From a virus (lineage: Duplodnaviria; Heunggongvirae; Uroviricota; Caudoviricetes), in IMG/VR virus record IMGVR_UViG_3300028048_000100, positions 33,214 through 97,213 of that record: DNA of 64,000 bases. One strand, given 5' to 3'. Positions 5,353-55,967 of the stretch are shown piece by piece. Below the pieces are notes generated by a model. That model did no database searches and had not been told where the DNA came from. It saw only the letters and a list, made by a program, of their open reading frames with translations. The translations under genes were made by a program, and so were the position numbers. Position 1 is the first letter of the stretch. The number at the start of each line of letters is the position of its first letter.

Positions 5353-5376
5353 ACTTATATTGTTTTAATGGTTAAG

Positions 5377-12236: not shown

Positions 12237-12242
12237 AATCAT

Positions 12243-14098: not shown

Positions 14099-14132
14099 AT
14101 ATCTATATACAAAGAAAGAGGAAATCTTTAGT
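14099..14132 (-). promoter_or_regulatory. conserved phage promoter-like motif (canonical copy)
   Basis: The minus strand reads GGGAATCACTAAAGATTTCctctttctttGTATATAGATAT ~20 nt upstream of the ATG at 14077. Confidence 0.55.
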
Positions 14133-17181: not shown

Positions 17182-17202
17182 ATTGCTGTTAATATAATAA
17201 GT

Positions 17203-20661: not shown

Positions 20662-20669
20662 CAAAAAAG

Positions 20670-20698
20670 AAAGAGAACCGCAAGGTTCTCTTTTATTA
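20670..20698 (+). terminator. rho-independent terminator
   Basis: agagaacc-gcaa-ggttctct stem followed by TTTTATT. Confidence 0.65.
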
Positions 20699-20707
20699 TA
20701 TAGTTAT

Positions 20708-21283: not shown

Positions 21284-21690
21284 GGACTCTTTGGGAAGCG
21301 ATTAACGATAATGACGAAACTGTGATTCATAACAGTAAACTCATCACAGACGTAGACACCCAACGCTATAAGCTGATGAAGCTATTAACGGAGTTCTTTG
21401 GAGTTAAGGAGTTTATACCTCACAAGAACTATCACGGCACGCTGATTATCAAGAGAACTAATCATCTCAAGATAAACGAATTTGCCAAGCAATTAGAGAA
21501 GCAACCTTTTGTTACTATGACCAAAGTAGATCGAGGGGATAAGTTAGCGAGTTATGGTTCAACTCTATATGTGAATAGTAATCTTGGTATATTGTGGTAT
21601 TTCACTTTCAATAAGGTGCTGAATGCCATCACCTCGGTACATGATAGTGAAGGTGTTCACATAAATCTATTTAACTACATGAAACAATGA
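21280..21690 (+). CDS. IQD-leader paralog family protein, long-leader form
   Basis: N-term MRTLWEAINDNDETVIHNS; ATGA coupling. Confidence 0.75.
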   Translation: MRTLWEAINDNDETVIHNSKLITDVDTQRYKLMKLLTEFFGVKEFIPHKNYHGTLIIKRTNHLKINEFAKQLEKQPFVTMTKVDRGDKLASYGSTLYVNSNLGILWYFTFNKVLNAITSVHDSEGVHINLFNYMKQ

Positions 21691-22172
21691 GACCGCTTTG
21701 GGAAGCCATACAAGATAGTGATGATAAGATCCTAAACAGATCAAAAGATATGCTTGGGAAGAATCAGCTGGAGGCGATGATGCTACTAATCATCAACCCA
21801 GTTGTAGAACTGATGCATAAATATCAGTGTAAGTACAATGGCCAAGATGATGCTACTAATGTATTCTCATTTGAAGAAAAGGATCACTACACCAATAACA
21901 TAGACTCAAAAGAGGTTAGAGATGCAGTGATAAAGAGCATCAAATCATCCAACTACAAGGATATCATGAAGATAGATACTAAGTATGTATTGTTCATAGA
22001 TTTCACTGATGAGGATATGCGAAAGAAATACCATAGGTCCGATAAGAAGTACAACGACCAATACGCACTGAACGTGGAAGTTACATTCCATTCAGGCAAG
22101 TGTTTTCTCAACGTATTCGGCAATAACACCTTCATAAGAACCTTCGAAAAATTACTAGATAAGCGAGCATGA
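21687..22172 (+). CDS. IQD-leader paralog family protein, long-leader form
   Basis: N-term MRPLWEAIQDSDDKILNRS. Confidence 0.75.
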   Translation: MRPLWEAIQDSDDKILNRSKDMLGKNQLEAMMLLIINPVVELMHKYQCKYNGQDDATNVFSFEEKDHYTNNIDSKEVRDAVIKSIKSSNYKDIMKIDTKYVLFIDFTDEDMRKKYHRSDKKYNDQYALNVEVTFHSGKCFLNVFGNNTFIRTFEKLLDKRA

Positions 22173-22666
22173 GAACACTCTGGGAAGCCATACAAAGTAG
22201 CGACGATGACATAGCTGCAGCATCAAGCAAAAGCATGGTGCCGTATCGCATAGTAGATATATTCTGCGATGTATTTGCACACATGTATCGTGATAAGGAT
22301 TCAAAATACGATCAAGGAAGTGATTATGTAGCTGGGCGTATACCAGTGTCTAACTATGACAAAATGGATAAGTATAAGACTGAGACTGAGCTGAAGAAGG
22401 ATCTACGTAAGTTCTGTAATAGTGTTCGATCTGAGTTTGCTCCGAAGGTGCTCATCCAGATGAAGACTAAACGAGATCAGATACTCAGAGTGGTAGATCG
22501 AAAAGACTATCGCATAATCATTTCTATTGGTAGCGCCACATATGGGCTAACAGTTCAGTTTGACACAAATCCGACGGCGAAGGGCGAGATTCCGGAGGTT
22601 AATTATATCCGTGTGATCTCGGGCAATCCTGATCTCATAACCGCATTCCATAATAAAGTTAAATGA
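22169..22666 (+). CDS. IQD-leader paralog family protein, long-leader form
   Basis: N-term MRTLWEAIQSSDDDIAAAS. Confidence 0.75.
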   Translation: MRTLWEAIQSSDDDIAAASSKSMVPYRIVDIFCDVFAHMYRDKDSKYDQGSDYVAGRIPVSNYDKMDKYKTETELKKDLRKFCNSVRSEFAPKVLIQMKTKRDQILRVVDRKDYRIIISIGSATYGLTVQFDTNPTAKGEIPEVNYIRVISGNPDLITAFHNKVK

Positions 22667-22667
22667 T

Positions 22668-23144
22668 ATGAGAACTCTTTGGGAAGCCATACAAGACAAC
22701 GATACTAAAATAGATGCGATATATGAAGAGTCTCGTTTGTTGCAAGAGATAGCAGATGGACTCAAGAAGCATTTCAGCAACTACTTGGAAAACGACTCCA
22801 AGATTAAGAAGGTCGGATCTTGGTGCCCACTTGGTAGGGTAGACGATGACTTGTACAACAAGGAAAGTATAAAGGATACCGAGGACTTCATGATTAAAAC
22901 TATCAAACAGATGCACAGGGATATCAAAAAGATACTAAAGAAGACGCTGGTTGATATTGAAACTTCAGTAGACAACTTCGGAGAGAATCACATCAAGCAC
23001 TACAATCTTACATTGTACATATCTGGATGTGAAACAAAGCACCTGATTCAATTTGTATTACACTCTAAGAGAAATAAATTCGGCGAAGAGGTGGAATACA
23101 TTGCTATTTGGACAAAAGATACTGAATTAGCCGATTTGATATGA
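22668..23144 (+). CDS. IQD-leader paralog family protein, long-leader form
   Basis: N-term MRTLWEAIQDNDTKIDAIY. Confidence 0.75.
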   Translation: MRTLWEAIQDNDTKIDAIYEESRLLQEIADGLKKHFSNYLENDSKIKKVGSWCPLGRVDDDLYNKESIKDTEDFMIKTIKQMHRDIKKILKKTLVDIETSVDNFGENHIKHYNLTLYISGCETKHLIQFVLHSKRNKFGEEVEYIAIWTKDTELADLI

Positions 23145-23602
23145 GAACACTCTGGGAAGCAATAAATGATAACGACGATAAGGTACTAGACGGAGCTGAT
23201 CTAGCCATGCTTGGTGCAGATGTTAAACGCGCTATTGAAAGCGTATATGGGCAGCTGTCACCAGATGAGGGTCGCCATGCTCGTCCTAAGTTAGTAGGTG
23301 AAGTAGGAGAGAAATACTTCCAGGATTACGAGTACAGCAAGAAATCCGGTAAGATGACTTATATTCATACTGATGGCACTGTTGTTCGAATCATGAAGAA
23401 TGCCCGAAGCAAAGGCATAGACGTGAAGATGGAGAAGTCAGATCACCACTACAGTGAAGTGGATGAACGCAAATACTATATGACATTCACTAGAAATGAT
23501 GTGAAGATAGAATTAACAATCATCGCCGACTCAACACGTAAATATGGAGTAGATACCATTGGCGTGTGGGCTGATGATGATGTCAAAAAATACCTACAAT
23601 AA
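23141..23602 (+). CDS. IQD-leader paralog family protein, long-leader form
   Basis: N-term MRTLWEAINDNDDKVLDGA. Confidence 0.75.
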   Translation: MRTLWEAINDNDDKVLDGADLAMLGADVKRAIESVYGQLSPDEGRHARPKLVGEVGEKYFQDYEYSKKSGKMTYIHTDGTVVRIMKNARSKGIDVKMEKSDHHYSEVDERKYYMTFTRNDVKIELTIIADSTRKYGVDTIGVWADDDVKKYLQ

Positions 23603-26323: not shown

Positions 26324-26676
26324 GAGATATTGTATTTAATCACAGAGTTAACACCCATCTCTTTCTTAGCCCGGTAATGTTCCTCCCTGTCTTTAAGGAG
26401 CTTGCGTATTTTGTTTGGATCCGTTGCGTCAAATAAACCACCTTTATAGAAATGGGAGGAGGCCCGGACCACATCTATGTCAAAGTAGTTCAACAGCTTT
26501 ATGGTCCAATCGTCCATTTTGCCGTTCTCAAAATTATGCTCAAGCTCCATCACACGCGATGAGTAGCTAATATTAGCATATTCTACGATTTTTGCCACAG
26601 CCTCCTCACGCATCCGTTCTTGGAAGAGAATACGGCTGTTGTCATCTAATATTTTTGAATCATCATCTTGAATCAT
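26320..26676 (-). CDS. IQD-leader paralog family protein
   Basis: N-term MIQDDDSKILDDN. Confidence 0.7.
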   Translation of the reverse strand: MIQDDDSKILDDNSRILFQERMREEAVAKIVEYANISYSSRVMELEHNFENGKMDDWTIKLLNYFDIDVVRASSHFYKGGLFDATDPNKIRKLLKDREEHYRAKKEMGVNSVIKYNIS

Positions 26677-27011
26677 TAGTCATATTTAAAATCAAACAAC
26701 ACATCAATAGCTCCGCAACCAGCTGCAGCATTCATCACCTGGGTTGCAAATTTTTTAGCGCATTCTTCTTCACTTAGATCAAAATCATAGTAAATATTTT
26801 CTCTCCTGAGGAGTTTGAACCCATTAGAGTAGCAACCTAGAGGAGCCGGAGGATTGGGTACAAAGTATCTCACGTCTGCCGCACTAAATAAGAGATTAGA
26901 CTTCTCATGATGTAGCCGATGGAAGTGAACAGCATGTTCGTATGCCCGCTGGTATATCTTATATTGATCACCTCGAGCATTAGCAATACTTTTGTCCGAA
27001 TCTTGTATCAT
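26676..27011 (-). CDS. IQD-leader paralog family protein
   Basis: N-term MIQDSDKSIANAR; the promoter motif abuts its ATG. Confidence 0.7.
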   Translation of the reverse strand: MIQDSDKSIANARGDQYKIYQRAYEHAVHFHRLHHEKSNLLFSAADVRYFVPNPPAPLGCYSNGFKLLRRENIYYDFDLSEEECAKKFATQVMNAAAGCGAIDVLFDFKYD

Positions 27012-27045
27012 GTATCTATATACAAAGAAAACGAAAAACTTTAGG
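27012..27045 (-). promoter_or_regulatory. conserved phage promoter-like motif
   Basis: The minus strand reads CCTAAAGTTTTTCgttttctttGTATATAGATAC directly fused to ATGATACAAGAT. Confidence 0.5.
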
Positions 27046-28934: not shown

Positions 28935-29365
28935 ATCATATATCGTTCGCCGCTTTTAAGACGTGCCTTGACTGAGTAGTTTCCCAAATCAGTGTCATAA
29001 CCCCATTCCATAATGAAGTCCATGATTTTCTGAAAGTAGAACTCTGTGAGTGCATTAAGTTCTAATTTGTACATCTTGCGCTCCCGGTTAGTGTCTTGGA
29101 ATGAGATCTTGAACTGGAGAGGGCCGGTAATGTGGTGAAGCTCTTCATCAGTGATGCGAATCCCAGCATACTTATAGTTGACGTGATAGGTGATCTTGAC
29201 TTTTAGAGGCCATTTGCACCCACGTTTAGTTATGCCCCACTTGACATCGTCTTTAGTATTGTAAAACGACCCGAGTTCGCTTTTCAGTTGGCGTTTAAAG
29301 TTCTTGTAACCTTTCAATGCGCTAGCTGAATCTTTCAATAAGATATTGTCGTCTCCGGTAATCAT
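28931..29365 (-). CDS. IQD-leader paralog family protein (variant MITGDDNILL)
   Basis: N-term MITGDDNILLKDS; ATGA overlap with the upstream gene. Confidence 0.6.
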   Translation of the reverse strand: MITGDDNILLKDSASALKGYKNFKRQLKSELGSFYNTKDDVKWGITKRGCKWPLKVKITYHVNYKYAGIRITDEELHHITGPLQFKISFQDTNRERKMYKLELNALTEFYFQKIMDFIMEWGYDTDLGNYSVKARLKSGERYMI

Positions 29366-30117
29366 AGGTAGTGCGTATAAACGGCGCGTCCGTTGCTGTT
29401 AAGTGAAACACATGTGATCTTGTGACCCATATAGGACGCAAGGATGATATCGTCTTTATGCTTGTTGGCAATAGCAACTAAGTCGTTCTTGAACAATTGG
29501 TGTTTAGCTGTTACCTCTTCCAAGATGTCGATGAATAACTGCTTGAATGAGTTACTAGTCTTGACAATCTCATAAGCACGAGCAATGCAATCCCGGCACT
29601 GATCCTTCTCAATATGCTTGAGAGTAGCTTCTAAGTCACCCTCAGATCCGAACGTCTTGTATTCGTGCTTGATCCCTTCGAACTTCTTGAAGTCACCCTT
29701 CAATAACCACCCGATCATGTCCGCTCTTAGCTCATGTTCCAGATAGCATGCATGAGATTCGGATTCTTCATGTCCGGTCTTTTCTCTGATTCTTTTGTCA
29801 GCATTATTCTTACGATCCGCTCCTAAGAACATATAGCCACCGATAAACCCAGATACACAGCTGTATACGTGTGCGTCTTTGGTATAGTCACCATAATTGC
29901 GATGATAAAAACACCCAGCACTATCCTCAGCTTCGTTCTCGATAATAGTCAACTCAGTTAGCGTCCAATCGAGTACGTCATCTAGCAGGTCAAGGCGACC
30001 TCTGCTCTCAAGACACTCAATGGTCTTGTATATGAACATAGCAGCGTGCATTGCTTCGTGAGCTGCTGTGTCGATAGCTGATACTTTCTGTGGCACTAAT
30101 GCGTTAGATTGATCCAT
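29362..30117 (-). CDS. HExxH-motif protein, putative zinc metallopeptidase
   Basis: 'AAHEAMHAAM' HExxH motif near the N-terminus. The start is set at MDQSNAL (30117) because the track's earlier Met (30153) reads through the promoter motif. It is the first gene of the 25219-29365 paralog array. Confidence 0.45.
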   Translation of the reverse strand: MDQSNALVPQKVSAIDTAAHEAMHAAMFIYKTIECLESRGRLDLLDDVLDWTLTELTIIENEAEDSAGCFYHRNYGDYTKDAHVYSCVSGFIGGYMFLGADRKNNADKRIREKTGHEESESHACYLEHELRADMIGWLLKGDFKKFEGIKHEYKTFGSEGDLEATLKHIEKDQCRDCIARAYEIVKTSNSFKQLFIDILEEVTAKHQLFKNDLVAIANKHKDDIILASYMGHKITCVSLNSNGRAVYTHYL

Positions 30118-30139: not shown

Positions 30140-30173
30140 ATATCTATATACAAACAAAAAGGAAATCTTTAGT
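30140..30173 (-). promoter_or_regulatory. conserved phage promoter-like motif (canonical copy)
   Basis: The minus strand reads GGGAATCACTAAAGATTTCctttttgtttGTATATAGATAT. Confidence 0.55.
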
Positions 30174-30766: not shown

Positions 30767-30790
30767 GACTGTATAATAAAAATTACGTTA

Positions 30791-35894: not shown

Positions 35895-35978
35895 TTTACT
35901 ATACTTTAATACATAAATAATAAAGTGCAGACCTAACTTTTCTAAAAGAATTTAGATTAGTAACCTTATTATAATTAC

Positions 35979-38243: not shown

Positions 38244-38834
38244 TCAATCTAACATCCAAATCTCTTCTGGTACTGATATTTCATATGTCCAACTCAGAGC
38301 TTTGAAGTCCATGCGATACTCTTTATTAGATTTTGTACCAGGACGTTTATCGTATGGTTTTTGGGCGTGTTTATCACGGAACCATACTCTAAATTGAATT
38401 TCCAGTCCACACACCTTGTATATCTGGTTTGAATCAAACTCTTTACTAGTCTTTTCAAACTCGACGTGTTTAGATTTTAGGTACTTTTCAAAACCTTCTC
38501 TCAATGCAGCACGGATGAAATTTTGGTTATCTATATCAACAGCTTCAAAGTCCTTGTTGTAATAGATGCTTGCATCATCGTGGTGAATAGATATGATGTA
38601 GTTCCACATATCATCCATATAGTACTTAACCGTGACACATTTCTTATTGATCCACTCATGACCGCGATTAGCAATAACCGGTTTACTCGCACCATTGACC
38701 TTACGAGAATCGATATGAAGTTGCTCGAAGAACTGATCCAGTGCTTCGCGTGCACGACGTTTGTCAATTTCGTTCTTGACTTTCTTGTCAATTACGTCGT
38801 CATTATCTTGTATGGCTTCCCAGAGTGTTCTCAT
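38244..38834 (-). CDS. IQD-leader paralog family protein, long-leader form (isolated copy)
   Basis: N-term MRTLWEAIQDNDDVIDKKV. Confidence 0.7.
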   Translation of the reverse strand: MRTLWEAIQDNDDVIDKKVKNEIDKRRAREALDQFFEQLHIDSRKVNGASKPVIANRGHEWINKKCVTVKYYMDDMWNYIISIHHDDASIYYNKDFEAVDIDNQNFIRAALREGFEKYLKSKHVEFEKTSKEFDSNQIYKVCGLEIQFRVWFRDKHAQKPYDKRPGTKSNKEYRMDFKALSWTYEISVPEEIWMLD

Positions 38835-39229
38835 TTCTTAAATTTTAACAGGAAATTTGTGTAAGTACCGCCGATCTCGAAGAATACATAATCAGCCTTC
38901 TCCCAAAGACCCTTGGAATTGTTGTATCCATAACTACCTACCTCATATAGCTCAGAGTCGTCAGCAAAGTAACTCTTGACGATCTCATAAACCTCTTCGT
39001 AGGTCATGCCCGGTTCAATACGAGCAGTAAGTATCTTAAACAAGCTATCCCAGAGTTTAGCAGGAGCCTTAACAAGCCAATCCAATGAATAATCTACAGA
39101 GTGTTCCTTAACATCCTTCTCGATGGCTTTCTTGTCGAGCAAACCGGACTTCTTGTTTAGATTTTTCCAAATGAGCTTTGCCTTTTGTGTATCAATAGCT
39201 TCGGTCAAGTATTCAGATAGACTTTTCAT
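38831..39229 (-). CDS. MKxL..LxE-leader family protein
   Basis: N-term MKSLSEYLTEAIDTQ; ATGA coupling. Confidence 0.55.
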   Translation of the reverse strand: MKSLSEYLTEAIDTQKAKLIWKNLNKKSGLLDKKAIEKDVKEHSVDYSLDWLVKAPAKLWDSLFKILTARIEPGMTYEEVYEIVKSYFADDSELYEVGSYGYNNSKGLWEKADYVFFEIGGTYTNFLLKFKK

Positions 39230-40896
39230 TATACTATATTGACTTTATTCATTTCTTTAGTTAATATATGTGCCTTGTATGGGCTAACTGTATAACCGAG
39301 CTTTGCCAATGTGTCACGGTTCAATAAGCAGTTTGTTGTCTTAGTATCGCGGTTATCAACAATACTGATATGTACGTCTTTAACCTTACGTAGACCGAGC
39401 TGTAACTCGGGGAGAACGATCACTGGTCTCTTGAAATGCTCTTCACCGGCAATAACCTTAGACTCTTTCACTTTCTCATAGCTAAACTTCTTGCCATCGA
39501 TAGTAAACTCAACAGTATTACCCTTATCTTCAAACTCACCAACCTCCAAACAAGTGGCATTAGTTGAGTTACCAGTGTCTAACTTAGCTAGGAACTCTTT
39601 TCTAACACCCTCACCAAAGTCGATAGTTACGCTCTCTACGTATCCGGCGGTTTTGTCTTGAAGCATGAACTCTGAAGGATCATCCAGCTCATTTAAGAGG
39701 ATGTTCACAAAGTTCTCCTTGATAACATCTGAGATACCATCTGTACCCGGCGATGCATTGATCTCCAATACGACGTTGTCGCCGATCTTTGGATTACTAC
39801 CCTTTACGAGTGGCATGATATCCACAGCACACCATGGCAAGTGTGACAGCTGTGCGGTGCGGAGTGCGATTTGTTCTTGCTCCTTAGTCAGCTTAACTGG
39901 TTCTGCTGTTGCACCGAGAGAAACATTTGAACGGAAGTCACCAGAGATCTTAACACGTTTCATACAAGCCAAGATCATCTGTTTATTACGAAGTGTGAGT
40001 ACATGAACACGAATATCACCCCCATCAGCCTCTTCTTTCTTTTGGATGATAAGCTTGCGCTCAGGATCGATGGCGAAGATCATTTGGAATATAGCCAATA
40101 TCTTCTTACCATCTACCATAGCTACACCAGTTCCACCATGGCCGTCTAGAATCTTAACAACGAACATCAACTCTTCGTTCTTATCCTGGTCCTTGTCACT
40201 CCATTCCGGATAAACCTCACGCATAGCATCATTATAGAGTTTCTCGTCATATAGAATCTCCTTAGTCATCAGTGTAAAGTTAGGCTGAGGAATCTCACCC
40301 TTCTGGAACAATACTGCTGAATCATACTTATTACATGCGAGTGCACTATACTGTACTGGATTGAGAACTAAGAAACCTCTATCCTGGAGCACCTTGACAA
40401 TATGTTCGCACTCATCTTCATCTTGCACGCCAAGACGTGAGAAGATCAAGGTGTCTAAGTTAGACTCTTTCTCAATAGTAAACTTCTCATCACCGTCAGT
40501 AATGACTATCTTGTTCTCATTCTCATCTGCGTCAATATCTGCTGCAACAAATACGTGAACCTCGGGGATAATCGGGCATTTTTGTTTCTTGAGAGTGTCA
40601 ACCGCATCGTAGATATTCTTTAATGTCTTGTTCTCCTTCGGGTCACGGTCATTAGTGAATACAACGATGTGTTTGAATATATTTTTACACTCTTTTGGAT
40701 GCTGTTCAGCATACGCTACCTCAAGTTCTTCTTTATTCTGAGCTTGTTTGGAAATTCGCTTTTGCTCTTTTTCCTTTTCCTTTTCTATTTCTGCGCGCTC
40801 TTTAGCAGATTTTTCCTCGAGCTTCTCTGTGATCATTTGGCGCACTTGGTCATCGTGCATCAGCGCATTCACATTGTGAAAATTTGAATAATCCAT
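39229..40896 (-). CDS. RimK-like ATP-grasp ligase fused to a C-terminal retropepsin-like domain (PF05618-type 'ATP-dependent Zn protease')
   Basis: 'FVVKILDGHGGTGVAMVDG', 'DIRVHVL' and 'GDFRSNVSLGATAEPVKLT' match RimK ATP-grasp motifs. The C-terminus carries 'LDTGNS…' and 'LLNRDTLAKLGYTV', which are aspartic-protease-like. Confidence 0.6.
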   Translation of the reverse strand: MDYSNFHNVNALMHDDQVRQMITEKLEEKSAKERAEIEKEKEKEQKRISKQAQNKEELEVAYAEQHPKECKNIFKHIVVFTNDRDPKENKTLKNIYDAVDTLKKQKCPIIPEVHVFVAADIDADENENKIVITDGDEKFTIEKESNLDTLIFSRLGVQDEDECEHIVKVLQDRGFLVLNPVQYSALACNKYDSAVLFQKGEIPQPNFTLMTKEILYDEKLYNDAMREVYPEWSDKDQDKNEELMFVVKILDGHGGTGVAMVDGKKILAIFQMIFAIDPERKLIIQKKEEADGGDIRVHVLTLRNKQMILACMKRVKISGDFRSNVSLGATAEPVKLTKEQEQIALRTAQLSHLPWCAVDIMPLVKGSNPKIGDNVVLEINASPGTDGISDVIKENFVNILLNELDDPSEFMLQDKTAGYVESVTIDFGEGVRKEFLAKLDTGNSTNATCLEVGEFEDKGNTVEFTIDGKKFSYEKVKESKVIAGEEHFKRPVIVLPELQLGLRKVKDVHISIVDNRDTKTTNCLLNRDTLAKLGYTVSPYKAHILTKEMNKVNIV

Positions 40897-40933
40897 AATT
40901 TTTTACTCTATAACTATATAATAATGATATTTC

Positions 40934-42037: not shown

Positions 42038-42121
42038 GACTAAAGAGGTTTGTCTTATTATATATATTAAGACTGACCAATACATTGAAACATTTAACTA
42101 ACAAAAAAATAACTGAACATT

Positions 42122-43299: not shown

Positions 43300-43971
43300 T
43301 CAACCTTCATATGTACAAGTCTCCCAATCCCAGTTGCCTGCACCAGTGATTATAGAAGATAATTCTTCCGCAAGCTTCTTGGATGTGTTATCGTCTGCTA
43401 TCAGATAGAAGAACATGCCGTCATCTCCATCAGCAGTCAATAGGTAAACCTCGTCACCTTTATTGAGATCAAATTCATCGGATAACAACTCTTGTTGAGC
43501 GTAGGAGTCGTCCCACGGATAGTTTCCTAGGAACTTAGTACCATAGTCAACTCGCTTGTCTTCGATGTCTTTGCATACCTTACAAAGGTTCTTGATGAAT
43601 GGTTTATTAGATTTAGCCCAATCAGCATCAACGGATACATCATCCCATCGATCCCAATCCTCACCATTCTTAGTGTTGACATCGAATTTGGCTGCGAAAG
43701 ATATGATGGATTCAACGTTGGCTGCAGAAGACTCAATATGCTTATTAGATTCAACGAGTAAGCTTTCCTTTAGAAAATCCTTCAGGTCTTTCATCTTCTT
43801 CTTGGTTTTTTGCTTCTTAGCCTTTGCTTTGTCAGTATCCATACCTTGTGCGAGTGGTTCCGATAAAGTGTCTTCACCAGTTGGTCCCGGATTACCAGCA
43901 CCCATTGTGTTACCCGGTGTAGTATAGATACCGGCACCATCACACTCGAGATATGTTAGCAAACTTCGCAT
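43300..43971 (-). CDS. hypothetical protein (223 aa), begins MRSLL
   Basis: ORF with a Lys-rich patch (KAKAKKQKTKKK). Confidence 0.55.
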   Translation of the reverse strand: MRSLLTYLECDGAGIYTTPGNTMGAGNPGPTGEDTLSEPLAQGMDTDKAKAKKQKTKKKMKDLKDFLKESLLVESNKHIESSAANVESIISFAAKFDVNTKNGEDWDRWDDVSVDADWAKSNKPFIKNLCKVCKDIEDKRVDYGTKFLGNYPWDDSYAQQELLSDEFDLNKGDEVYLLTADGDDGMFFYLIADDNTSKKLAEELSSIITGAGNWDWETCTYEG

Positions 43972-44597
43972 TATTCCTCACCTGGTTCTGGATCAGCAGC
44001 TGGATCTGCTGGTTGTTCATCAGATACTTCAGTAACAGCAGTCTCATGAACAGATACCTTTACATAGATACCTGCGGGATCACCGGCTAGATCATAGAGT
44101 GGGTAAACAGCTTCCGGATCAAGCTCAGTTGCTTCTACGCGATATTTTTCACCAATCAGTGAAGGTTCTGGGTCTGGTTCGTTTGTTAACACTTCGACTT
44201 CGGTATAATCCTCGCCGCGGTCTACTACTTTAACAGTACCACGAGCCCATTCAGTAGTTGCCTCTTCGTCAGCGTATGAGACAAAGTCATAGAGCTCCTC
44301 TACTGGCTCCTCTGAAGAATCATCAGAGCTAGATCCTGCATCTGAGCTGTCTGAAGAATCAGAGCTATCTGAGCTTGAGCCTCCGTCTGAAGAATCGTCT
44401 GAAGAATCAGAGCTATCTGAGTTGTCGCCGAAGAAGTAATCGTAAGCAGCTACTTGAGTTACAGCGGCACGAGCAATCTTGCCACCTTCTGATTCAGCGT
44501 CATCTGGATCGATTACACCCTCTGCGATAGCAACGTTGACAGCAGGCTGTGTAATATAGTCTTCCAATTTGAGTTTTTCCTCATTATTTGCGTCCAT
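43971..44597 (-). CDS. highly acidic Ser/Asp-repeat protein
   Basis: …DSSDSSDDSSDGGSSSDSSDSSDSSDAGSSSDDSSEE… low-complexity core. The DNA carries direct repeats (tctgaagaatcagagctatctga, twice). Confidence 0.55.
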   Translation of the reverse strand: MDANNEEKLKLEDYITQPAVNVAIAEGVIDPDDAESEGGKIARAAVTQVAAYDYFFGDNSDSSDSSDDSSDGGSSSDSSDSSDSSDAGSSSDDSSEEPVEELYDFVSYADEEATTEWARGTVKVVDRGEDYTEVEVLTNEPDPEPSLIGEKYRVEATELDPEAVYPLYDLAGDPAGIYVKVSVHETAVTEVSDEQPADPAADPEPGEE

Positions 44598-44666
44598 AAT
44601 TGCAGTATATTTTTCTAATATAATAACTACTCAAGAAAGGGTTGGAAATTCATATATTAGATAGGA

Positions 44667-47600
44667 ATGAAAGAGAACATATCACTTGAGCAATCATTAC
44701 AGGCGTATCGTGTAATGAATACTCCGACTGAGCTCTCGTGGAAGCAACACTGGGCCAAGGAAACATTCACGTGCGACAGCTACATAGACTGCTCCGACGA
44801 AGAGAAGGCGCAATTCAATAAGCGTCTGCAAGAGGGTGAGATCACTCTCGCTCCTATTAACTTGCCCGGCGGTCAGATGGGTGAACTTAGCACGCTACAA
44901 ACATTAGTTGAGCGGCTATACGATATTCGTTATAAGGACACCCCGAAGATTCGTCGTATGGTAATCTTCTCCTCTCGTACTGGTGAGCGACCTGCTGGTA
45001 AGAACCGCGCATTTGAACTATGGAACGGATTTCAGGTAATCGACTTGGATATCAAAGATGCAACAATGGCTAATAAGTTAAAGCAGCATCTGTTTGATAG
45101 CCTCAAGTCTTGCAACTGGTTCCTTGGTGTAGCCCTATCCTCATCTGGTAAGGGTTTGCATGTCTATACTAAGATTACGGTTCCAGAAGCTGATGCAGAT
45201 GACACTCGTAAGCGTAAGATGCTATATCTGACTAACTTCCGTCACAAATACTCTTATGTATATATCGTACTCAATAACGGGTGCAAGCAATTCGGATACA
45301 CCAAAGAGGATATCCTTAAGTGGATGGACTTGGCTATGTTCAAGCCACAGCAGGGCGCTTTCATTGGTTACGACCCTCATCCATTGATTAGTACTCATTA
45401 CTTTGAGGATTTCATTTACGTAAACTTCGACAACGAGCAGAGCATTGGTTCCGCTATGGACTGGCTGACATATCCAGATCTGAAAGAGATCTTTAAGAGA
45501 TGGGAGTGGTTTGAGGATGATGACCAGGCCGATATCAAGATTGAGGTCCAATCAGCAGGAGATTTGGAGTACGATACTAAGAACAAAGTACACTATAAGC
45601 ACAAAGAGCGTTGGCGTTTGGCTAATACCCTTGTAAAACTATATGGCATAGACAAGGGTTATCGTTATCTCCGCATGATATGCTCTAACTCAGTAAGTGA
45701 CAAAGAGCTGCAGGCGGACTGTATCACTGCGTCTCGCCACGACAAGCCTGTAGATGTGTGGGCTGTTAACCGATTGAACAGCCAGCATGGATTCAAGATC
45801 AAGCTCAATGTGCAGGCAGAACAGTTTGATGAGTCAGAGATATACAAATCAGTAGACAGCATTGACAATCCAACAATCATTCGCGAGTCTGAGAAACTAA
45901 TGACGTTTAATATTAAGAAGGATGAATATCTTGGTAATATTAAATGGCAACTATTGGCTAATATCGGGCGAGTTACTCTTATCGAGGCTGGTGCTGGTGT
46001 GGGCAAGACCGAAATGGTCAAGTCTCTAGTACGTGACGGCAAGAAGGTCGTTCTCGTTATGCCGTTTACATCTACTATTAAGTCTAAGGTAGAGGGCGAT
46101 AAGGACTGGTTATATGCGTATGGTAATCACAAGGTACGCCTCGATCAAACACCAGGTGTGGCCATGACTATTGATAAGTTCTCTCATCTCAATCTGATGG
46201 ATATCAAGGCATGTGGCTTCGACTATATCATCATAGACGAGTCTCACCTTATGTTTCAATCAGAATACCGACCTGTTATGACTCGCGTTATTGAGATGGT
46301 TCGTAACACAGAAGTGCCTATTATCCTCATGTCTGGTACTCCAAGTGGTGAGTTAGTATTCTTCCCAGATATCGTGCACCTCAAAGTTAATAAAGAGGAA
46401 ACACGTCAAAAGGAGTTTCATGTGTTCTTTACCCAGAGCAATGATGACTTAAAGATGTATATGTGCAAGGCGATGGCCAAGGACATTGCTGAAGGACGGC
46501 GCATTCTATTCCCGACAAATAAGGGTACACTATTTTCAAAGGAAATCAAGGCAGCAGTACAGTACTTCTTGGAGACTGACCATTTCTTATTTGATGAAGT
46601 CAAGCTGAACTATTACAAGAAGTCTAATGTGGGTGAGAAATTCATGGATGATGTCAACTTCCAGAAGACTATCAAGAAAACGCAGATACTAATGTGTTCG
46701 TCTTATCTATCTGTGGGTGTAGACATCCTCGATAAGTATAAGTTTGCTATCTACTTTGATGACTTGATGATGCCACAGGAGGTGGAGCAGTTTGCTAACC
46801 GCTTACGCTCAAACGACCTATTCATCAACTTATATGTGTCTCGGTTTGATTCGGACGGCAACTCCAAGAACCTCAACAAGTTCCGCGATATCAACTTCAA
46901 GTTGAATGATGAAGAGATAAAGAATATACACTCTATCCTCCGCATCTGCAACTCTATGATTGAACGTAACCCAGTAGAGTATCGGTACAATACGCTGATC
47001 AGCTCTATTGTAAATAGCAATAAATTCATTGAATACAATGAGATAGACAACAAGTACTACCTCAATGAGATTGCGTATAAGACTATTTACTTCGAGCGTA
47101 AATATCGAGAATATGTGCAACAATTGCCTGTACTTATGAAAGGCATGAAATCATATGGATACTTACTTTCTTCTAAGGATCTACCTGCATTTGAAAACAA
47201 GGAGATCATGGGAGATGTTAAGACCAAAAGCAAACAGGCATATGATGAGCAGGTAACACAGAACTCCGATGATATTATCGAACTCCTAGATCTTATCACA
47301 GAGGACCGTCTAGAACTATACAAAGATGTTATGGCCGGTCACTATGAGATCAAGAAGGGTCCAGAGTGGAAGGAGGATCCCGAGAACAAACTCATGATGG
47401 TGAAGAATATTGAGATGTTTGAAAAAGTGGTACCAATCTGCGTGTCCATGTCTAAGATGTTTACAGTGGAAGATATCAAGGACATATTTATGCACTGTAG
47501 AAGTAGAAATACATTCAACTTCGCTGCCATAGGACGTATTCGTATGCTAATCAACTTGGTTTATAACAATAAGATCAAGCGCTTGGACTTACCTATTCAA

Positions 47601-47999
47601 GAGTTTATGGAGAGTGTATACAAATTCTCTGAGCTGGGTACTGTACACAAGGCTGAGGTGTCTAAATTCATCCGCAACTTCGCAACCAAATACGCTATTA
47701 ACGCTTCTTCTATGGATATTATCATCACGCGATCTGAGATAACCATGAAGGAATTGATCGAGACATTCACCAATATGTTTAAGTGTTTGGTTGATGTATC
47801 TCGTCCAGATAAAGAAGGTAATGTCAAGCTTAAAAAAGTAGAGTTGTTGTGGAAGGAACGCGAGGAGTATAACCGTAGCGACGAGTATCAAGCAGAGAAA
47901 CTATTCGTACTGGCTGAGTTCTTACAGGGAGCGCAAATTCAAACGCAAGTTGTGGACGATTCCTCGGATGATTCCTCGGATGATTTTAACGTTGGTTGA
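44667..47999 (+). CDS. DNA primase (AEP/prim-pol) fused to an SF2 helicase
   Basis: AEP motifs 'VIDLDIKD' and 'SSSGKGLHVY'. Helicase Walker A 'EAGAGVGKTEM' and DExH 'IIIDESH'. C-terminal DDSSDDSSDD tail. Confidence 0.7.
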   Translation: MKENISLEQSLQAYRVMNTPTELSWKQHWAKETFTCDSYIDCSDEEKAQFNKRLQEGEITLAPINLPGGQMGELSTLQTLVERLYDIRYKDTPKIRRMVIFSSRTGERPAGKNRAFELWNGFQVIDLDIKDATMANKLKQHLFDSLKSCNWFLGVALSSSGKGLHVYTKITVPEADADDTRKRKMLYLTNFRHKYSYVYIVLNNGCKQFGYTKEDILKWMDLAMFKPQQGAFIGYDPHPLISTHYFEDFIYVNFDNEQSIGSAMDWLTYPDLKEIFKRWEWFEDDDQADIKIEVQSAGDLEYDTKNKVHYKHKERWRLANTLVKLYGIDKGYRYLRMICSNSVSDKELQADCITASRHDKPVDVWAVNRLNSQHGFKIKLNVQAEQFDESEIYKSVDSIDNPTIIRESEKLMTFNIKKDEYLGNIKWQLLANIGRVTLIEAGAGVGKTEMVKSLVRDGKKVVLVMPFTSTIKSKVEGDKDWLYAYGNHKVRLDQTPGVAMTIDKFSHLNLMDIKACGFDYIIIDESHLMFQSEYRPVMTRVIEMVRNTEVPIILMSGTPSGELVFFPDIVHLKVNKEETRQKEFHVFFTQSNDDLKMYMCKAMAKDIAEGRRILFPTNKGTLFSKEIKAAVQYFLETDHFLFDEVKLNYYKKSNVGEKFMDDVNFQKTIKKTQILMCSSYLSVGVDILDKYKFAIYFDDLMMPQEVEQFANRLRSNDLFINLYVSRFDSDGNSKNLNKFRDINFKLNDEEIKNIHSILRICNSMIERNPVEYRYNTLISSIVNSNKFIEYNEIDNKYYLNEIAYKTIYFERKYREYVQQLPVLMKGMKSYGYLLSSKDLPAFENKEIMGDVKTKSKQAYDEQVTQNSDDIIELLDLITEDRLELYKDVMAGHYEIKKGPEWKEDPENKLMMVKNIEMFEKVVPICVSMSKMFTVEDIKDIFMHCRSRNTFNFAAIGRIRMLINLVYNNKIKRLDLPIQEFMESVYKFSELGTVHKAEVSKFIRNFATKYAINASSMDIIITRSEITMKELIETFTNMFKCLVDVSRPDKEGNVKLKKVELLWKEREEYNRSDEYQAEKLFVLAEFLQGAQIQTQVVDDSSDDSSDDFNVG

Positions 48000-48056
48000 T
48001 TATTATTGTAAATTTTCTAATGATTTTCAATATATTCGTTATAGTAAACTGTATAC

Positions 48057-49268
48057 ATGAAGCCAACGCAGATTAGGAGAGGAATCAGCTCTTTCATAAA
48101 GAGTAACAAAGAAGCAGTAACAAAATATGAATTAGAATGTGACGATACTTTTGAGAATAATACTGATGATATCGTTTTTTTGTTGAGCAAATTGGATAAC
48201 TTAGACGACACTAAAACAATATTATATCGGGCATTATACAACTCTATAGTAAATCACGTACATATATTAGATAGCCTGGACACGGTCGTTACACTTCGTA
48301 ACATGGGTGCAGACGATTCGGATAAATCACTTAACTTCTATTTCGACGAGATCAATCAGATATATGAGAACAATCATAATGAATATGATCTCGTATACTG
48401 TGAAGAGAACCTTGACAAGCTTATCCAGATGAACCTTAAAACGGTAATTTCTATTGCGAAGAAATACCAGAACAAAGGTCTTAGTCTGGAAGACTTAATA
48501 CAAGCAGGCAATGAAGGATTGGTGGTGTGCGCGAAGGGAGACTCTAAAACAGGCAAGCCAAAGTACGATCCAAAGCGAGCTACGTTGAAAGAAGATGCAC
48601 TTGCGGATCTAGGTACTCTGCCAGACGACGCCACCGTAGAAGAGATCGACATGCTACTCGATAAATGGTTCACGTATGGTAAGCTAAAAAAGAAATTCGA
48701 CGAGGATTTCCCATCACATAGATATACAAAAGCAGAAGTGGAAGAATGGGTTAAGAAAAATGTAGTCAATGCAAAGTTCAACTCAGTAGCATCTATGTGG
48801 ATCCGTGCATATATACTCATGTCTCTCAATGATGAGTCACGCACAGTAAAGATTCCCAAAGCGGAAATCGACAAAGAAGCAAAAGAAACCGGCACTTACA
48901 AACGTGAGGAAAAAGTAGATATAGATGCTCCAATATCCAGCGAAGACTCTCGCACATATAGTGATATGTTAAGCGAAGAGGAGCAGGCTAGCAATATGGA
49001 GATCAGCGAAGCGCAAGACGAGTTCAAACGTGGTCTGAATAAGTTGTTAGATGGGGTTAAACCGAGAGATAGAGCGGTATTCCTAAAGAAGTTCGGAATT
49101 GGGTTGCCGAGGCCGATGTTACCACGCGAAATAGCTGAACAAGAAGGTCTGTCTATTGCCCGTGTATCACAGATATTTCAAACAGTCGAGCAGCAGATAG
49201 TCAAGAATCAAGCTAAATACGACGTGGATATTGAGAGACTGTTAGAATCGGCTAAAGCACTCCGATAG
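48057..49268 (+). CDS. sigma-70 family RNA polymerase sigma factor
   Basis: Region 2 'ISIAKKYQNKGLSLEDLIQAGNEGLVVCAKGD'. Region 4 HTH 'REIAEQEGLSIARVSQIFQTVEQ'. Confidence 0.75.
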   Translation: MKPTQIRRGISSFIKSNKEAVTKYELECDDTFENNTDDIVFLLSKLDNLDDTKTILYRALYNSIVNHVHILDSLDTVVTLRNMGADDSDKSLNFYFDEINQIYENNHNEYDLVYCEENLDKLIQMNLKTVISIAKKYQNKGLSLEDLIQAGNEGLVVCAKGDSKTGKPKYDPKRATLKEDALADLGTLPDDATVEEIDMLLDKWFTYGKLKKKFDEDFPSHRYTKAEVEEWVKKNVVNAKFNSVASMWIRAYILMSLNDESRTVKIPKAEIDKEAKETGTYKREEKVDIDAPISSEDSRTYSDMLSEEEQASNMEISEAQDEFKRGLNKLLDGVKPRDRAVFLKKFGIGLPRPMLPREIAEQEGLSIARVSQIFQTVEQQIVKNQAKYDVDIERLLESAKALR

Positions 49269-49285: not shown

Positions 49286-49576
49286 ATGAGCAGAAGTCTG
49301 AAAAACAGAAGATTAAAACACGGTGCACATTTTCACTGGGTAAACTACAGTTCCAATAAACAGGACAAGCAATACGCAAACCGATCCATGCGGCGTAACA
49401 ACCGCATTAGAATTAAACTCGGGAAAGAACCGTATCACAGCCTTAGAGAAGTGTGTGACAATTGGAATTTTAACAGCGATGGTGGATGCTCATATGTTAA
49501 CTTCTTAGGTAGCAGATATGGATACAAAGGAGAACCATACTCAAAAGAAGATATTAGACTAATTAACAGGAAATGA
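49286..49576 (+). CDS. small basic protein (96 aa)
   Basis: ORF with ATGA coupling to the next gene. Confidence 0.45.
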   Translation: MSRSLKNRRLKHGAHFHWVNYSSNKQDKQYANRSMRRNNRIRIKLGKEPYHSLREVCDNWNFNSDGGCSYVNFLGSRYGYKGEPYSKEDIRLINRK

Positions 49577-50421
49577 ATAAAACTAAGTACATAGGTATCA
49601 GGGGTCACCGTGGCTCAGGTAAGAGCACAGTGGCTTATCTACTAGGCAATATCATTCAGTGGTTACTGGACAACTACATGACCAAACAGGGTTTGAATAT
49701 GAAGTATGCAACAGAGCTTACTAATGACCCGGTATTTACGGTTTCTTATCGTGTTTGGTGTGAATGTATCAAAACAGATGAGCAATTTGCATTGTCAGAC
49801 ATGAACAGCAACAATGTATACCTCGAAACATTTGGTAACACACCGAAGATGCTGATAGAGTTATTAACTGATATGCCACATGAATACTTCAATTCAGACT
49901 ACTATAAGGATCATGTGGTAGTTAACATTTCAGACTTCACTTGGAAGGTATCTGAAGATCCATCTCATGAGGTTACATATGACTATGAAGCTCTATTGGA
50001 TGAGATTGAACGCGGAAACATCACCGAAGTAGATGATGAGAACATTTATCTGACACTTCGTGACCTTATCGTATACTTTGCAACGGTCAGCATGAAGTAC
50101 CTCGGACGTAGTGTTTGGGTTAAGACTGTTAAGTGTAACGAGAAGAAATATGACCAATATGAGGACTATTACAATATTGGGACTCGTTATAAGATATTTG
50201 CCGACATCAAGGCGCCATCCGAGCTCGACTACGTTCGTAACCAAGGTGGAACTATCATCTTAGTAGAACGCCCTGAGTTTAAGAAGAAGGCGAAAGGTGT
50301 ATCCACATTGGATCACGACGATCGCTGCGATTATCGCGTGACGATTAACAAAGATATCTTGGATGATGACGAGCTAAAATCACAATTGGTTGGGATTGCA
50401 ATAGATTTAGTACGAGAGTGA
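49573..50421 (+). CDS. P-loop kinase (dNMP-kinase-like)
   Basis: Walker A 'GIRGHRGSGKSTVAYLL' at the N-terminus. Confidence 0.5.
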   Translation: MNKTKYIGIRGHRGSGKSTVAYLLGNIIQWLLDNYMTKQGLNMKYATELTNDPVFTVSYRVWCECIKTDEQFALSDMNSNNVYLETFGNTPKMLIELLTDMPHEYFNSDYYKDHVVVNISDFTWKVSEDPSHEVTYDYEALLDEIERGNITEVDDENIYLTLRDLIVYFATVSMKYLGRSVWVKTVKCNEKKYDQYEDYYNIGTRYKIFADIKAPSELDYVRNQGGTIILVERPEFKKKAKGVSTLDHDDRCDYRVTINKDILDDDELKSQLVGIAIDLVRE

Positions 50422-51445: not shown

Positions 51446-52051
51446 TTATGACTTTATTCCGAAGAGCTTGCCGCAATCAGTTGCGACTGGCCCATAGCTT
51501 GGCTGCTGGCCTATTTCATTCTCGAGATTCTCGTCGTTGAATGGGATGATAACGATGTATTTCACGTCACTGTGTTTCCACATATCCTTAACAGCCTTGT
51601 CCACTTTTATCTGTAAACCCTCGTTGGTGTGTTCGCTCATGCTCTCGTTTAAAAACTCGACTAAGCTTCTCATCGGTTTATCTGCACTCTCTCTCAATAC
51701 TTTGAGTTTATACAGGGTAGAATCGATAAGAGATAGAATGGCATCCACATCACTCTTGAGCTCGTCTTCTTTGAGGAACTTTTTGCCATCCTCAGCCAGT
51801 TCTCTGAGTGATTCGAGGTATTCGATAGCATTCATCTTATCAGTTGACATCACATTCTTGAGGTTCTTAACCACACCATGAATGCCCTGATACTCTTCGA
51901 TGAGTGAATCTACGAGATCAACAACCTTTTCATAGAACTCATTTAGAGCAATGTGCGAACTATATTTGTCGGTCTTGAGATGGGCTTTCCAGGCTTCTAC
52001 CATAGAACCCTGAAGTGTTCCTAAATATTCTTCAATCGTTTCAACTTTCAT
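51446..52051 (-). CDS. hypothetical acidic protein (201 aa)
   Basis: N-term MKVETIEEYL. Lies in the same coupled block. Confidence 0.55.
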   Translation of the reverse strand: MKVETIEEYLGTLQGSMVEAWKAHLKTDKYSSHIALNEFYEKVVDLVDSLIEEYQGIHGVVKNLKNVMSTDKMNAIEYLESLRELAEDGKKFLKEDELKSDVDAILSLIDSTLYKLKVLRESADKPMRSLVEFLNESMSEHTNEGLQIKVDKAVKDMWKHSDVKYIVIIPFNDENLENEIGQQPSYGPVATDCGKLFGIKS

Positions 52052-55238: not shown

Positions 55239-55272
55239 ACTAAAGATTTTCCCTTTCTTTGTATATAGATAT
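55239..55272 (+). promoter_or_regulatory. conserved phage promoter-like motif (plus-strand copy)
   Basis: GGGAAGATCACTAAAGATTTTccctttctttGTATATAGATAT. Confidence 0.55.
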
Positions 55273-55291: not shown

Positions 55292-55669
55292 ATGAATAAC
55301 AAACCGTTTAAAAAAGGTGAACTCGTTATCACTTATTCAGGTGATCGGAGAGAGATTCAAGTTGAGCACAAGGTCGTCACCAGTGTCGGTGAGAAGTATG
55401 TCACCGTCATGAGTGTTGATTCTGCAGGCAAGCCTTGGGGCCGTAAGGAACAGTATAGCGTAATCACGCGATATTTAAAAGACTACCAGTCTCGTCAATT
55501 GTTTCATGATGAGCAAGAACTTCAAGAAGATCTCAAAGAGAAAGAATTAGTAACTAAGTTCCACCGTTTGGCTGACGTGTATGGTTTCAATCGGGAAGAG
55601 ATCAAGCTTTTCATGGAAATCCATGAGGCTGGTATTGAGAACTGGAAAAACGAGCACTATAAAGCATAA
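55292..55669 (+). CDS. hypothetical protein
   Basis: The start is set at MNNKPFKKG. The track's earlier Met (55259) reads through the promoter motif. Confidence 0.5.
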   Translation: MNNKPFKKGELVITYSGDRREIQVEHKVVTSVGEKYVTVMSVDSAGKPWGRKEQYSVITRYLKDYQSRQLFHDEQELQEDLKEKELVTKFHRLADVYGFNREEIKLFMEIHEAGIENWKNEHYKA

Positions 55670-55693
55670 TGTATATGAAAAAGCTCAAATAAT

Positions 55694-55727
55694 CCTAAAG
55701 ATTTCTAAAATCATCGTATATAGACAT
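55694..55727 (+). promoter_or_regulatory. conserved phage promoter-like motif (variant)
   Basis: CCTAAAGATTTCtaaaatcatcGTATATAGACAT. Confidence 0.45.
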
Positions 55728-55748
55728 GTAACATTAAATATATTACTT

Positions 55749-55967
55749 ATGTACAGCGTTAAAAATTGCCCAAATTGGGTTCACAATCACAAGTACGCAG
55801 TCATTAGGGACTGTAGGAATGAGCAAGCACCAAACAACGGATTCTGGTTTTATGGGTCGTATGACAGTTTGATCACCGCTCAAGAGGCACTTAACGAGAT
55901 CGGCAATGGTGTCATCGTCGAGTCGAAAGAGGTTGAGATGATCCCTCCGTACAACAATTTTGGATAA
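55749..55967 (+). CDS. small hypothetical protein (72 aa)
   Basis: ATG ~20 nt downstream of the promoter motif: MYSVKNCPNWVH…. Confidence 0.45.
   Translation: MYSVKNCPNWVHNHKYAVIRDCRNEQAPNNGFWFYGSYDSLITAQEALNEIGNGVIVESKEVEMIPPYNNFG

Follow-up and report, generated by a model that had tools for sequence, protein, structure and literature searches.

A phage gene for a sigma-70-family protein with a divided region 2, and the promoter-like elements of its genome

The sigma gene and its protein

We analysed a 64,000-nucleotide stretch of a tailed phage genome (IMG/VR record IMGVR_UViG_3300028048_000100, positions 33,214 to 97,213; hereafter the window), focusing on the open reading frame (ORF) at 48057..49268 on the plus strand, which starts with ATG and encodes 403 residues. 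The ORF is real and, judged from its sequence and predicted structure, encodes a sigma-70-family protein with an architecture that is unusual for the family. This bears out an earlier, sequence-only reading, which had proposed that the phage encodes a sigma factor of its own.

The Pfam model Sigma70_r2 matched residues 122-160 (E=1e-5, 25.6 bits, cutoff 24), and it also matched 44/44 aligned family members. The match is confined to positions 1-39 of the 71 in the profile, because an inserted domain splits region 2. TIGR02937, the NCBIfam superfamily model, scored 73.4 bits (cutoff 42.9), with a second stretch that pairs residues 239-382 with profile positions 50-162 of 165. The best PHROG match was the general sigma family PHROG_351, 'RNA polymerase sigma factor' (E=1e-24). 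All sequence and profile matches in the PDB were sigma factors, and the family profile matched the cyanobacterial SigA chain 8h3v_G with an overall E=3.5e-21. When the profile was compared to a complete Bacteroidota-type sigma-A with hhalign, the two were colinear from region 1.2 to region 4.2, up to position 275 of 285 (99% probability, E=9e-18). The AlphaFold2 (AF2) model had a predicted local distance difference test score (pLDDT) of 82, its top 50 Foldseek matches in the PDB were exclusively sigma chains, and those viral structure matches that bear a name (BFVD, E<=0.001) were phage sigma factors.

The sequence-only reading had made its assignment depend on the Pfam models of both region 2 and region 4. 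At face value half of this failed, as Sigma70_r4 gave no match in the 403-residue protein at E<=1 and matched only 2/44 relatives. Pfam misses a helix-turn-helix that other comparisons recover: TIGR02937 extends to position 162 of 165, the family profile aligns with regions 3.2-4.2 of 8h3v_G (domain E=1.4e-4), and the hhalign alignment runs through region 4.2. The region 4 helix-turn-helix of the earlier reading was thus upheld.

The protein falls outside the established sigma classes with which it was compared. The group 1 (RpoD/SigA) model TIGR02393 scored 77 bits against a cutoff of 354, and the remaining RpoD and RpoS models were equally far under their cutoffs. Extracytoplasmic function (ECF, group 4) sigmas are set apart by the region 1.2 (YFDEINQIY) and the region 3.2 finger (DIDAPISSED) of the phage sigma, and the minimal late sigma of the T4 gp55 type by its region 4. 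A contiguous sigma domain 2 was not found either, since regions 2.3-2.4 resume only after the insertion in all 44 members. MzaA, the sigma of the MZA anti-phage system, was rejected as an identity (NF041931, 61 bits, cutoff 800).

From the N-terminus, the protein starts with a five-helix domain (residues 1-85, 48057..48311; AF2 helices H3-16 to H70-83, block pLDDT 83-93), which has no Pfam match and belongs to no recognised family; it is kept in close relatives and missing from shorter distant ones. Region 1.2 follows (residues 90-106, SLNFYFDEINQIY, 48324..48374). It pairs with DSIRLYLQEIG of SigA and SITSYFNDINK of the Bacteroidota-type sigma-A, and its residues Y95, F96 and Y103 are invariant in the family. 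Regions 2.1-2.2 cover residues 118-175 (48408..48581), as given by the Pfam match, PDB alignments to SigA over residues 118-160 and near-invariant columns. They end in KYDPKR, the equivalent of KFEYRRG (418-424) of E. coli sigma-70. Within them lies the peptide LIQAGNEGLVVCAKGD (residues 147-162, nucleotides 48495-48542), which the sequence-only reading had quoted as the promoter-melting and -10-recognising part of region 2. Region 2 is present as claimed; the quoted peptide is the core-binding helix of region 2.2. The melting and -10-reading part is AKFNSVASMWIRAYIL (residues 239-254), about 80 residues past that peptide and beyond the insertion.

The insertion itself is a helical domain of residues 176-238 (48582..48770), which falls exactly between the equivalents of G424 and Y425 of E. 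coli sigma-70. A helical insertion of 64-102 residues between regions 2.2 and 2.3 is present in 44/44 aligned relatives, and no cellular sigma compared has a counterpart. Two identities were tried and rejected. In topology the insertion resembles a calcium-binding EF-hand, but the alignment holds no conserved DxDxDG-type loop, so we treat it as an uncharacterised small helical domain or bundle. Pfam DUF5498 is a chance match (21.3 bits, cutoff 27, in 1/44 members).

After the insertion, regions 2.3-2.4 and the start of region 3.0 (residues 239-272, AKFNSVASMWIRAYIL...SRTVKIPKAEI, 48771..48872) align with KFSTYATWWIRQAI...SRTIRLP of primary sigmas; this segment is invariant in the family and retained in its most distant relatives. 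The region 3.2 finger (residues 284-300, EEKVDIDAPISSED, 48906..48956) aligns with ISLETPIGKEED of SigA. Only ~15 residues separate regions 3.0 and 3.2, compared to ~47 in SigA, and Pfam Sigma70_r3 matched in none of the 44 family members. By these alignments, most of sigma domain 3 is deleted in the phage family. Regions 4.1-4.2 (residues 318-388, ...FGIGLPRPMLPREIAEQEGLSIARVSQIFQ..., 49008..49220) also contain invariant columns. The combination of the insertion with the loss of domain 3 was found neither in the solved structures compared nor in GenBank phages, and a literature search, a weak negative, gave no relevant description of an insertion between regions 2.2 and 2.3.

The residues that would read DNA were mapped by PDB alignments and the family alignment, using sigma-70 numbering. 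In sigma-70, Y425, F427, Y430, W433 and W434 act in melting, Q437 and T440 read position -12, and R584, E585 and R588 read the -35 element (PMC2613000). The residues of the phage family at the five melting positions are A, F, V/I, M/L and W, respectively, so that Y430 is replaced by V/I and W433 by M/L. Of the -12 readers, Q437 is replaced by A and T440 by L, and in the -35 readers the substitutions are R584 to I, E585 to A and R588 to S. Among relatives that are only 47-79% identical overall, these columns vary hardly or not at all. The core-binding helix (family consensus ELISAGNLGL) is invariant, and W434, R436 and the K-Y/F-D-P-x-R loop are retained. In the most distant relatives (loci L018-L020), region 2.3/2.4 stays MWI(R/K)AYI, and the region 4.2 helix changes. 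The latter reads SIARVSQ in this phage, TIARVSQIY in L012, SVNKVKY in L018/19 and VSSIKSI in L020. As read from these alignments, substituted DNA-reading columns that hardly vary, next to an invariant core-binding helix, are what would be expected of a working specificity factor with a specificity unlike that of any primary sigma.

Gene neighbourhood, relatives and likely host

The sigma gene belongs to a transcription unit on the plus strand. Directly upstream lies a gene for a primase-helicase of 1110 residues (44667..47999; Pfam DEAD and BT4734-like_N), which adjoins the sigma gene on this side in 13/20 relatives. Downstream are a 96-residue ORF with no assigned function (49286..49576), a homolog of which stands at the same place in L002, and the last gene of the unit, encoding a dNMP-kinase-like protein of 282 residues (49573..50421; PHROG_139 E=6e-11, Pfam DNMK). 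The latter was found downstream of the sigma gene in 11 of the relatives (20 loci examined). No terminator was found inside the unit, including the gap between primase-helicase and sigma genes, and the sole strong terminator-like hairpin near its end lies past the dNMP-kinase-like gene (50504-50530, minus strand). The kept gene order and the lack of an internal terminator make the sigma gene a core gene of the replication module, early or middle. Across loci L001-L017 the sigma is 42-56% identical (35% in L015), compared to 53-72% for the adjoining primase-helicase, which makes the sigma the faster-evolving partner.

A T4-type large terminase (TerL), encoded at 17203..19125 on the minus strand, shares no more than 31% identity with terminases of cultured phages, among which the nearest are those of the jumbo phages PTm1, PTm5 and pT24 of Tenacibaculum, a genus of the Bacteroidota. 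Relatives of the sigma are abundant in metagenomes: a word-index search of a metagenomic protein collection gave 1199 at E<=0.001, the best 120 of which are all ~400 residues long, and an exhaustive search gave 51 sigma clusters (50% identity) at E<1e-30. The contigs that carry the sigma reach 226-240 kb. Among GenBank phages, neither nucleotide nor protein searches recovered a sigma with this architecture, even at E<=1, and the window segment 47000-51000, which includes the sigma gene, had no nucleotide match. With tblastn at E<=1, no GenBank phage record covered >=80% of the protein; a few matches extended past the insertion site (42-71% coverage, 25-29% identity) and lacked the insertion, and most others were limited to region 2.

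Among GTDB species representatives, the sole true relative was the rumen contig RUG343 (410 kb), which is also listed as viral in IMG/VR. In GTDB this contig, ONIZ01000001.1 (410,106 bp; L019 = L021), bears the name 'uncultured Firmicutes bacterium RUG343'; the member of the sigma family that it encodes is a distant one. Its sigma ORF seems truncated under standard stop codons, which may reflect stop-codon recoding or a different start. A prophage or bacterial origin was rejected: no other GTDB locus has this architecture, and the rest of the matches are weak or partial, mostly to region 2. The lineage is one of large phages with a T4-type terminase, known from metagenomes only, from gut and rumen.

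The host was approached from several sides. A Shine-Dalgarno core was found upstream of 4/90 window genes, and scarcity of such cores is a usual trait in Bacteroidota and their phages. Among cellular sigmas, those nearest by exhaustive search are ~285 residues long, start with MRQLKIT... and carry KFISYAVWWIRQSI; one genome labelled Bacteroidales has a sigma of the same MRQLKIT/KFISYAVWWIRQSI type. Together with the relationship of the terminase to those of Tenacibaculum phages and the rumen origin of RUG343, this makes Bacteroidota the most probable hosts.

By exhaustive search the closest cellular relative of the phage sigma is the Bacteroidota primary sigma-A, with which hhalign found it colinear. 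That protein, of ~285 residues, has no region 1.1 and reads TTTG at -33 together with TAnnTTTG at -7. The two have in common YF-E/D-I/V in region 1.2, the core-binding helix LIS-x-GNLGL and FGI...P..M...EIAE in region 4. Compared to sigma-A, the phage protein has the extra N-terminal domain of 85 residues and the 64-residue insertion between regions 2.2 and 2.3, and it misses ~30-45 residues of domain 3. The helices that would read DNA differ as well: the -10-reading helix is FNSVASMWIRAYIL in the phage sigma and FISYAVWWIRQSIL in sigma-A, and the -35-reading helix is SIARVSQIFQ and STERVRQLKE, respectively.

On the viral side, RpoD-like sigmas have been surveyed in large T4-related ('group 2') jumbo phages by Iyer et al. 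2021, examples being those of Tenacibaculum phage PTm1, Microcystis phage MaAM05 and Aeromonas phage phiA8-29 (PMC7824862). These are the best viral structural matches of our sigma and resemble it in being near-complete sigma-70 proteins, in belonging to phages without an RNA polymerase of their own and in their presumed recruitment of the host core (PMC7824862). They differ from it in sequence (identity at most 18-25%), and their matches lack the region 2 insertion. ECF sigmas, like the phage sigma, lack the canonical melting aromatics and have an absent or much reduced domain 3, and they use two-box promoters, as the phage sigma may do. Unlike them, the phage sigma has region 1.2 and the region 3.2 finger, and its best matches are group 1 and group 2 sigmas; ECF sigmas have no insertion in domain 2.

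Several phage sigmas, such as gp28 and gp33/gp34 of Bacillus phage SPO1 and gp55 of T4, switch the host RNA polymerase to middle or late promoters (for SPO1 summarised in PMC13401047). By analogy, the sigma described here may likewise displace that of the host from the core enzyme and change promoter specificity as part of a temporal programme. The SPO1 and T4 proteins are small and highly diverged, whereas this one remains recognisably near a cellular primary sigma. T4 gp55 consists of a region-2-like module only and needs gp33 and the sliding clamp, whereas the phage sigma keeps regions 1.2, 2, 3.2 and 4.

Promoter-like elements and a proposed role

The sequence-only reading had linked the sigma to a conserved bipartite promoter motif. 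Such a motif exists: ACTAAAGATTTC and GTATATAGATAT co-occur with a fixed gap of 10 nucleotides. The full element, which we call class A, consists of CTAAAG, a T-rich spacer of 16 nucleotides and TATATAGAT. A two-block matrix found 7 sites at >=22 bits, compared to 0.7 in shuffled sequence, and we found one additional weaker site. On the minus strand, sites at 14101..14131 and 30142..30172 (24.1 bits each) are located upstream of the genes at 13172..14077 and 29362..30117. At three further minus-strand sites the ATG follows 3 nucleotides after the element: 27014..27044 (24.1 bits, gene 26676..27011), 12245..12275 (24.1 bits, nucleoside 2-deoxyribosyltransferase gene 11781..12242) and 10128..10158 (23.1 bits, gene 9514..10125). 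The weaker site, with a 15-nucleotide spacer, is found at 7135..7164 (minus strand, 14.4 bits) upstream of 6819..7136. The plus-strand sites are 55240..55270 (24.1 bits) and 55695..55725 (22.3 bits), upstream of 55292..55669 and 55749..55967, respectively. Here the longest-ORF call, 55581..55967, is probably wrong; a better fit is given by these two plus-strand genes, both of which have a class A site of their own. Given this re-call, all 8 sites are intergenic.

Apart from the nucleoside deoxyribosyltransferase, the genes behind class A sites have no assigned function. Four of them (6819..7136, 9514..10125, 13172..14077 and 26676..27011, all on the minus strand) have the N-terminus MIQD(S/D)D and the DNA sequence GATATGATMCARGAT in common, with no similarity detectable beyond the N-terminus. 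We rejected the motif as a by-product of gene duplication: the 8 downstream genes are not detectable paralogs and share only the six-residue N-terminus. MIQD(S/D)D/GATATGATMCARGAT may reflect not paralogy but a conserved element for translation initiation or in the initially transcribed region. In relatives, single class A look-alikes occur, for example in L002, L003, L005, L009 and L012-17; that of L002 reads ACTAAA, 17 nucleotides and TTATATAAAA, upstream of two small ORFs. Conservation of class A in relatives is anecdotal.

A second element, class B, is a T-run followed by TATTATA(T/A), located 5-25 nucleotides before an ATG and often directly after a GC hairpin. The exact sequence TTATTATA is intergenic in 10/11 occurrences, with 5.6% of the window being intergenic. 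In the window an ORF start comes after 64% of TATTATA occurrences, compared to 20% for composition-matched 7-mers; for the window and 20 relatives together, genomes of 49% GC included, the values are 29% and 16%. On the minus strand, class B elements lie 6 nucleotides before the large terminase start codon (TATTATA, 19132..19138), upstream of 16408..17181 (17193..17200), 6 nucleotides before the thymidylate kinase gene (30772..30779), upstream of the RimK-like ATP-grasp gene (40917..40924) and in the divergent gap between 43971..44597 and the primase-helicase gene (44619..44626). On the plus strand, they are found 6 nucleotides before a gene of 602 codons (35966..35973), upstream of an SSB-like gene (42055..42062) and, as TTATTATA fused to a GC hairpin and T-run, 8 nucleotides before the first gene of a tandem paralog array (20693..20700). 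The sigma gene has a class B-like TATTATT 49 nucleotides upstream of its start codon (48001..48007, plus strand), and L002 has TATTATTATA 9 nucleotides upstream of its sigma gene.

The sequence-only reading had placed the bipartite motif ahead of paralog arrays and late genes. This did not hold up, as the 8 class A sites precede other, non-paralogous genes, and it is class B, not class A, that stands ahead of the terminase, the tandem array, the replication genes and the sigma gene. The paralog family in question has nine members of 126-196 residues, located beside baseplate and head-closure genes: 14164..14739, 15273..15779 and 38244..38834 on the minus strand, and six tandem genes at 20708..23602 on the plus strand. 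The earlier description of the motif as non-host-like was borne out, and canonical sigma-70 promoters (18 found, 17.6 expected) and Bacteroidota-type promoters (1 found, 1.6 expected) are not enriched in the window. The downstream half of class A (TTTGTATATAGATAT) and the extended class B (TTATTATATAGTTAT) are identical at 12/15 positions.

Two observations concern the layout of these elements. In several of the related phages a GC-rich terminator-like hairpin runs via its T-tail into TATTATA, giving compact terminator-promoter junctions (window 20660-20700; L007 14660-14712 and 18080-18130; L015 12800-12852; L020 2920-2970 and 12363(-)). Furthermore, promoter-like elements end 2-7 nucleotides before many starts (for instance at 10125-10158, 12242-12275, 27011-27044, 19125-19138 and 35966-35979). 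Together with the scarcity of Shine-Dalgarno cores, this predicts that many mRNAs are leaderless or nearly so.

We consider it fairly probable that the protein is a functional initiation factor of the sigma-70 family, with which a large lytic phage retargets the host RNA polymerase to AT-rich phage promoters. In this scheme the sigma would be made together with the replication genes and would bind the host core enzyme via the conserved surfaces of regions 2.2 and 4, in place of the host sigma-A. This replacement and retargeting we regard as fairly safe. Since the DNA-reading residues are unlike those of every primary sigma, the enzyme would be directed to phage-specific AT-rich promoters and not to those of the host. 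Likely targets would carry a shared -10-like core, TTnnTATA, located 2-25 nucleotides before start codons. The core would stand alone in the T-run and TATTATA of class B (terminase, paralog array, replication genes). In class A (eight small or nucleotide-metabolism genes) it would be joined, at 16-nucleotide spacing, by the -35-like box CTAAAG, which region 4 would read. That TTnnTATA is the cognate -10-like element and that region 4 reads CTAAAG in class A is the weakest step of the scheme. The constancy of region 2.3/2.4 beside a diverging region 4.2 mirrors a putative -10-like element that is conserved without a conserved -35. Many transcripts would be leaderless or nearly so, as would suit a host in which Shine-Dalgarno sites play no part.

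Several points weigh against this reading. Every link between the sigma and a promoter is an inference from sequence, and the assignment of a Bacteroidota host is indirect. In the 20-kb loci of relatives (+-10 kb) the class A matrix is not enriched, its matches being as many as expected from shuffled sequence, and the enrichment of class B is weak or absent in L015, L018 and L019. Y430 and W433, melting aromatics in sigma-70, are replaced and a domain is inserted alongside, so the sigma could be impaired in melting or need a partner. In addition, the sigma gene is itself preceded by class B-like and weak class A-like elements. If both classes are read by the sigma, its first expression requires another route, and no such route was found in the 64-kb window.

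These points leave room for other explanations. It is possible, though we regard it as unlikely, that the sigma reads class A only and that TATTATA is used by the host holoenzyme or by a factor encoded outside the window, for example of the T4 gp55/gp33 type. With domains 2 and 4 intact, a sigma would be expected to read a two-box promoter with a spacing of ~17 bp, which is exactly the class A geometry; close relatives have an invariant region 4.2 helix, a similar two-box site is found in L002, and in large T4-like phages an RpoD-like sigma is often accompanied by a minimal sigma plus gp33 (PMC7824862). However, the downstream half of class A is close to class B, class A is not enriched in relatives although the sigma is a conserved core gene, and no gp55- or gp33-like gene was found among the 34 window proteins scanned, a scan that left out most small ORFs and the rest of the genome. 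Rather improbable, in our view, is the converse, in which class A sites are early promoters for the unmodified host RNA polymerase and the sigma acts at middle or late times on TATTATA only. This would resemble the late promoters of T4, which read TATAAATA and have no -35. The small genes without assigned function and the nucleotide-metabolism gene behind class A are typical early cargo, class B precedes the terminase and the gene array of the structural region, and class B and region 2.3/2.4 are both conserved in the family while region 4.2 diverges. Against it, class A resembles neither the Bacteroidota (TTTG ... TAnnTTTG) nor the sigma-70 consensus, neither of which is enriched, class B also stands ahead of the replication genes and the sigma gene, and the strong conservation of region 4 in close relatives is unexpected for a protein in which it has no DNA target.

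The replaced melting residues, the 64-residue domain inserted at the neighbouring loop and the near loss of domain 3 would also suit a protein that merely occupies the host core enzyme, or competes with the host sigma-A, to shut off host transcription. Such a decoy would need core-binding surfaces only, and here the region 3.2 finger and the putative DNA-reading helices of regions 2.4 and 4.2 do not vary among relatives of only ~50% overall identity. W434, R436 and the K-Y/F-D-P-x-R loop are retained as well. Moreover, ECF sigmas lack these aromatics and domain 3 yet are fully active, and the abundant non-host-like promoter motifs of the phage require some reader. We therefore hold a decoy to be very improbable. 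As for the insertion, it is located at the loop next to the pocket for the flipped -11 base, in a sigma without most of domain 3. It might take over DNA contacts just upstream of the -10, in the T-rich spacer or TTnn, a speculation in which we place little confidence.

A phage-borne sigma as a takeover tool is already known, and its existence here is unsurprising. For the folded domain inserted beside the promoter-melting residues, together with the loss of domain 3, we found no description. The sigma family is large and a core gene of an uncultivated gut and rumen phage lineage, and it is absent from GenBank phage records. In Bacteroidota, the likely hosts, primary sigma and promoter code are divergent, which would make this a tractable system for the study of how phages rewire transcription. 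The sigma and its putative promoters are also a candidate orthogonal pair for engineering Bacteroides or Prevotella. If the insertion does take over DNA contacts upstream of the -10, this would represent a new, largely -35-independent mode of promoter recognition by a sigma-70-family protein, and a jumbo phage lineage of gut and rumen would run a programme of leaderless mRNAs on the unusual RNA polymerase of Bacteroidota.

Further elements of the window

Besides the genes described above, the window encodes a T4-baseplate-like protein, a head-closure-like protein, a prohead-protease-like protein, a 5'-3' exonuclease, an SSB-like protein, a UvsW-like helicase and an exonuclease subunit of DNA polymerase. 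The RimK-type ATP-grasp protein has 555 residues (39229..40896, minus strand), and a Dps-like 'starvation-inducible' protein is encoded at 51446..52051 (minus strand). The nucleoside 2-deoxyribosyltransferase gene is likewise on the minus strand, as is a tRNA-Arg(TCT) at 5376..5449.

A third motif, GAGATC-N4-GTTAAATCGCAA-N-AAAYGYG, was found three times in the window, each time on the minus strand (11173-11182, 30805-30814 and 50454-50463), and its core recurs in distant relatives (L012 20487-20496, L013 20543-20552). The first two copies precede 10562..11146 and the thymidylate kinase gene, respectively, and the third lies in the convergent gap right after the sigma operon, beside a minus-strand TTTGATATAGAT element. 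The motif could be an operator or an antisense promoter.

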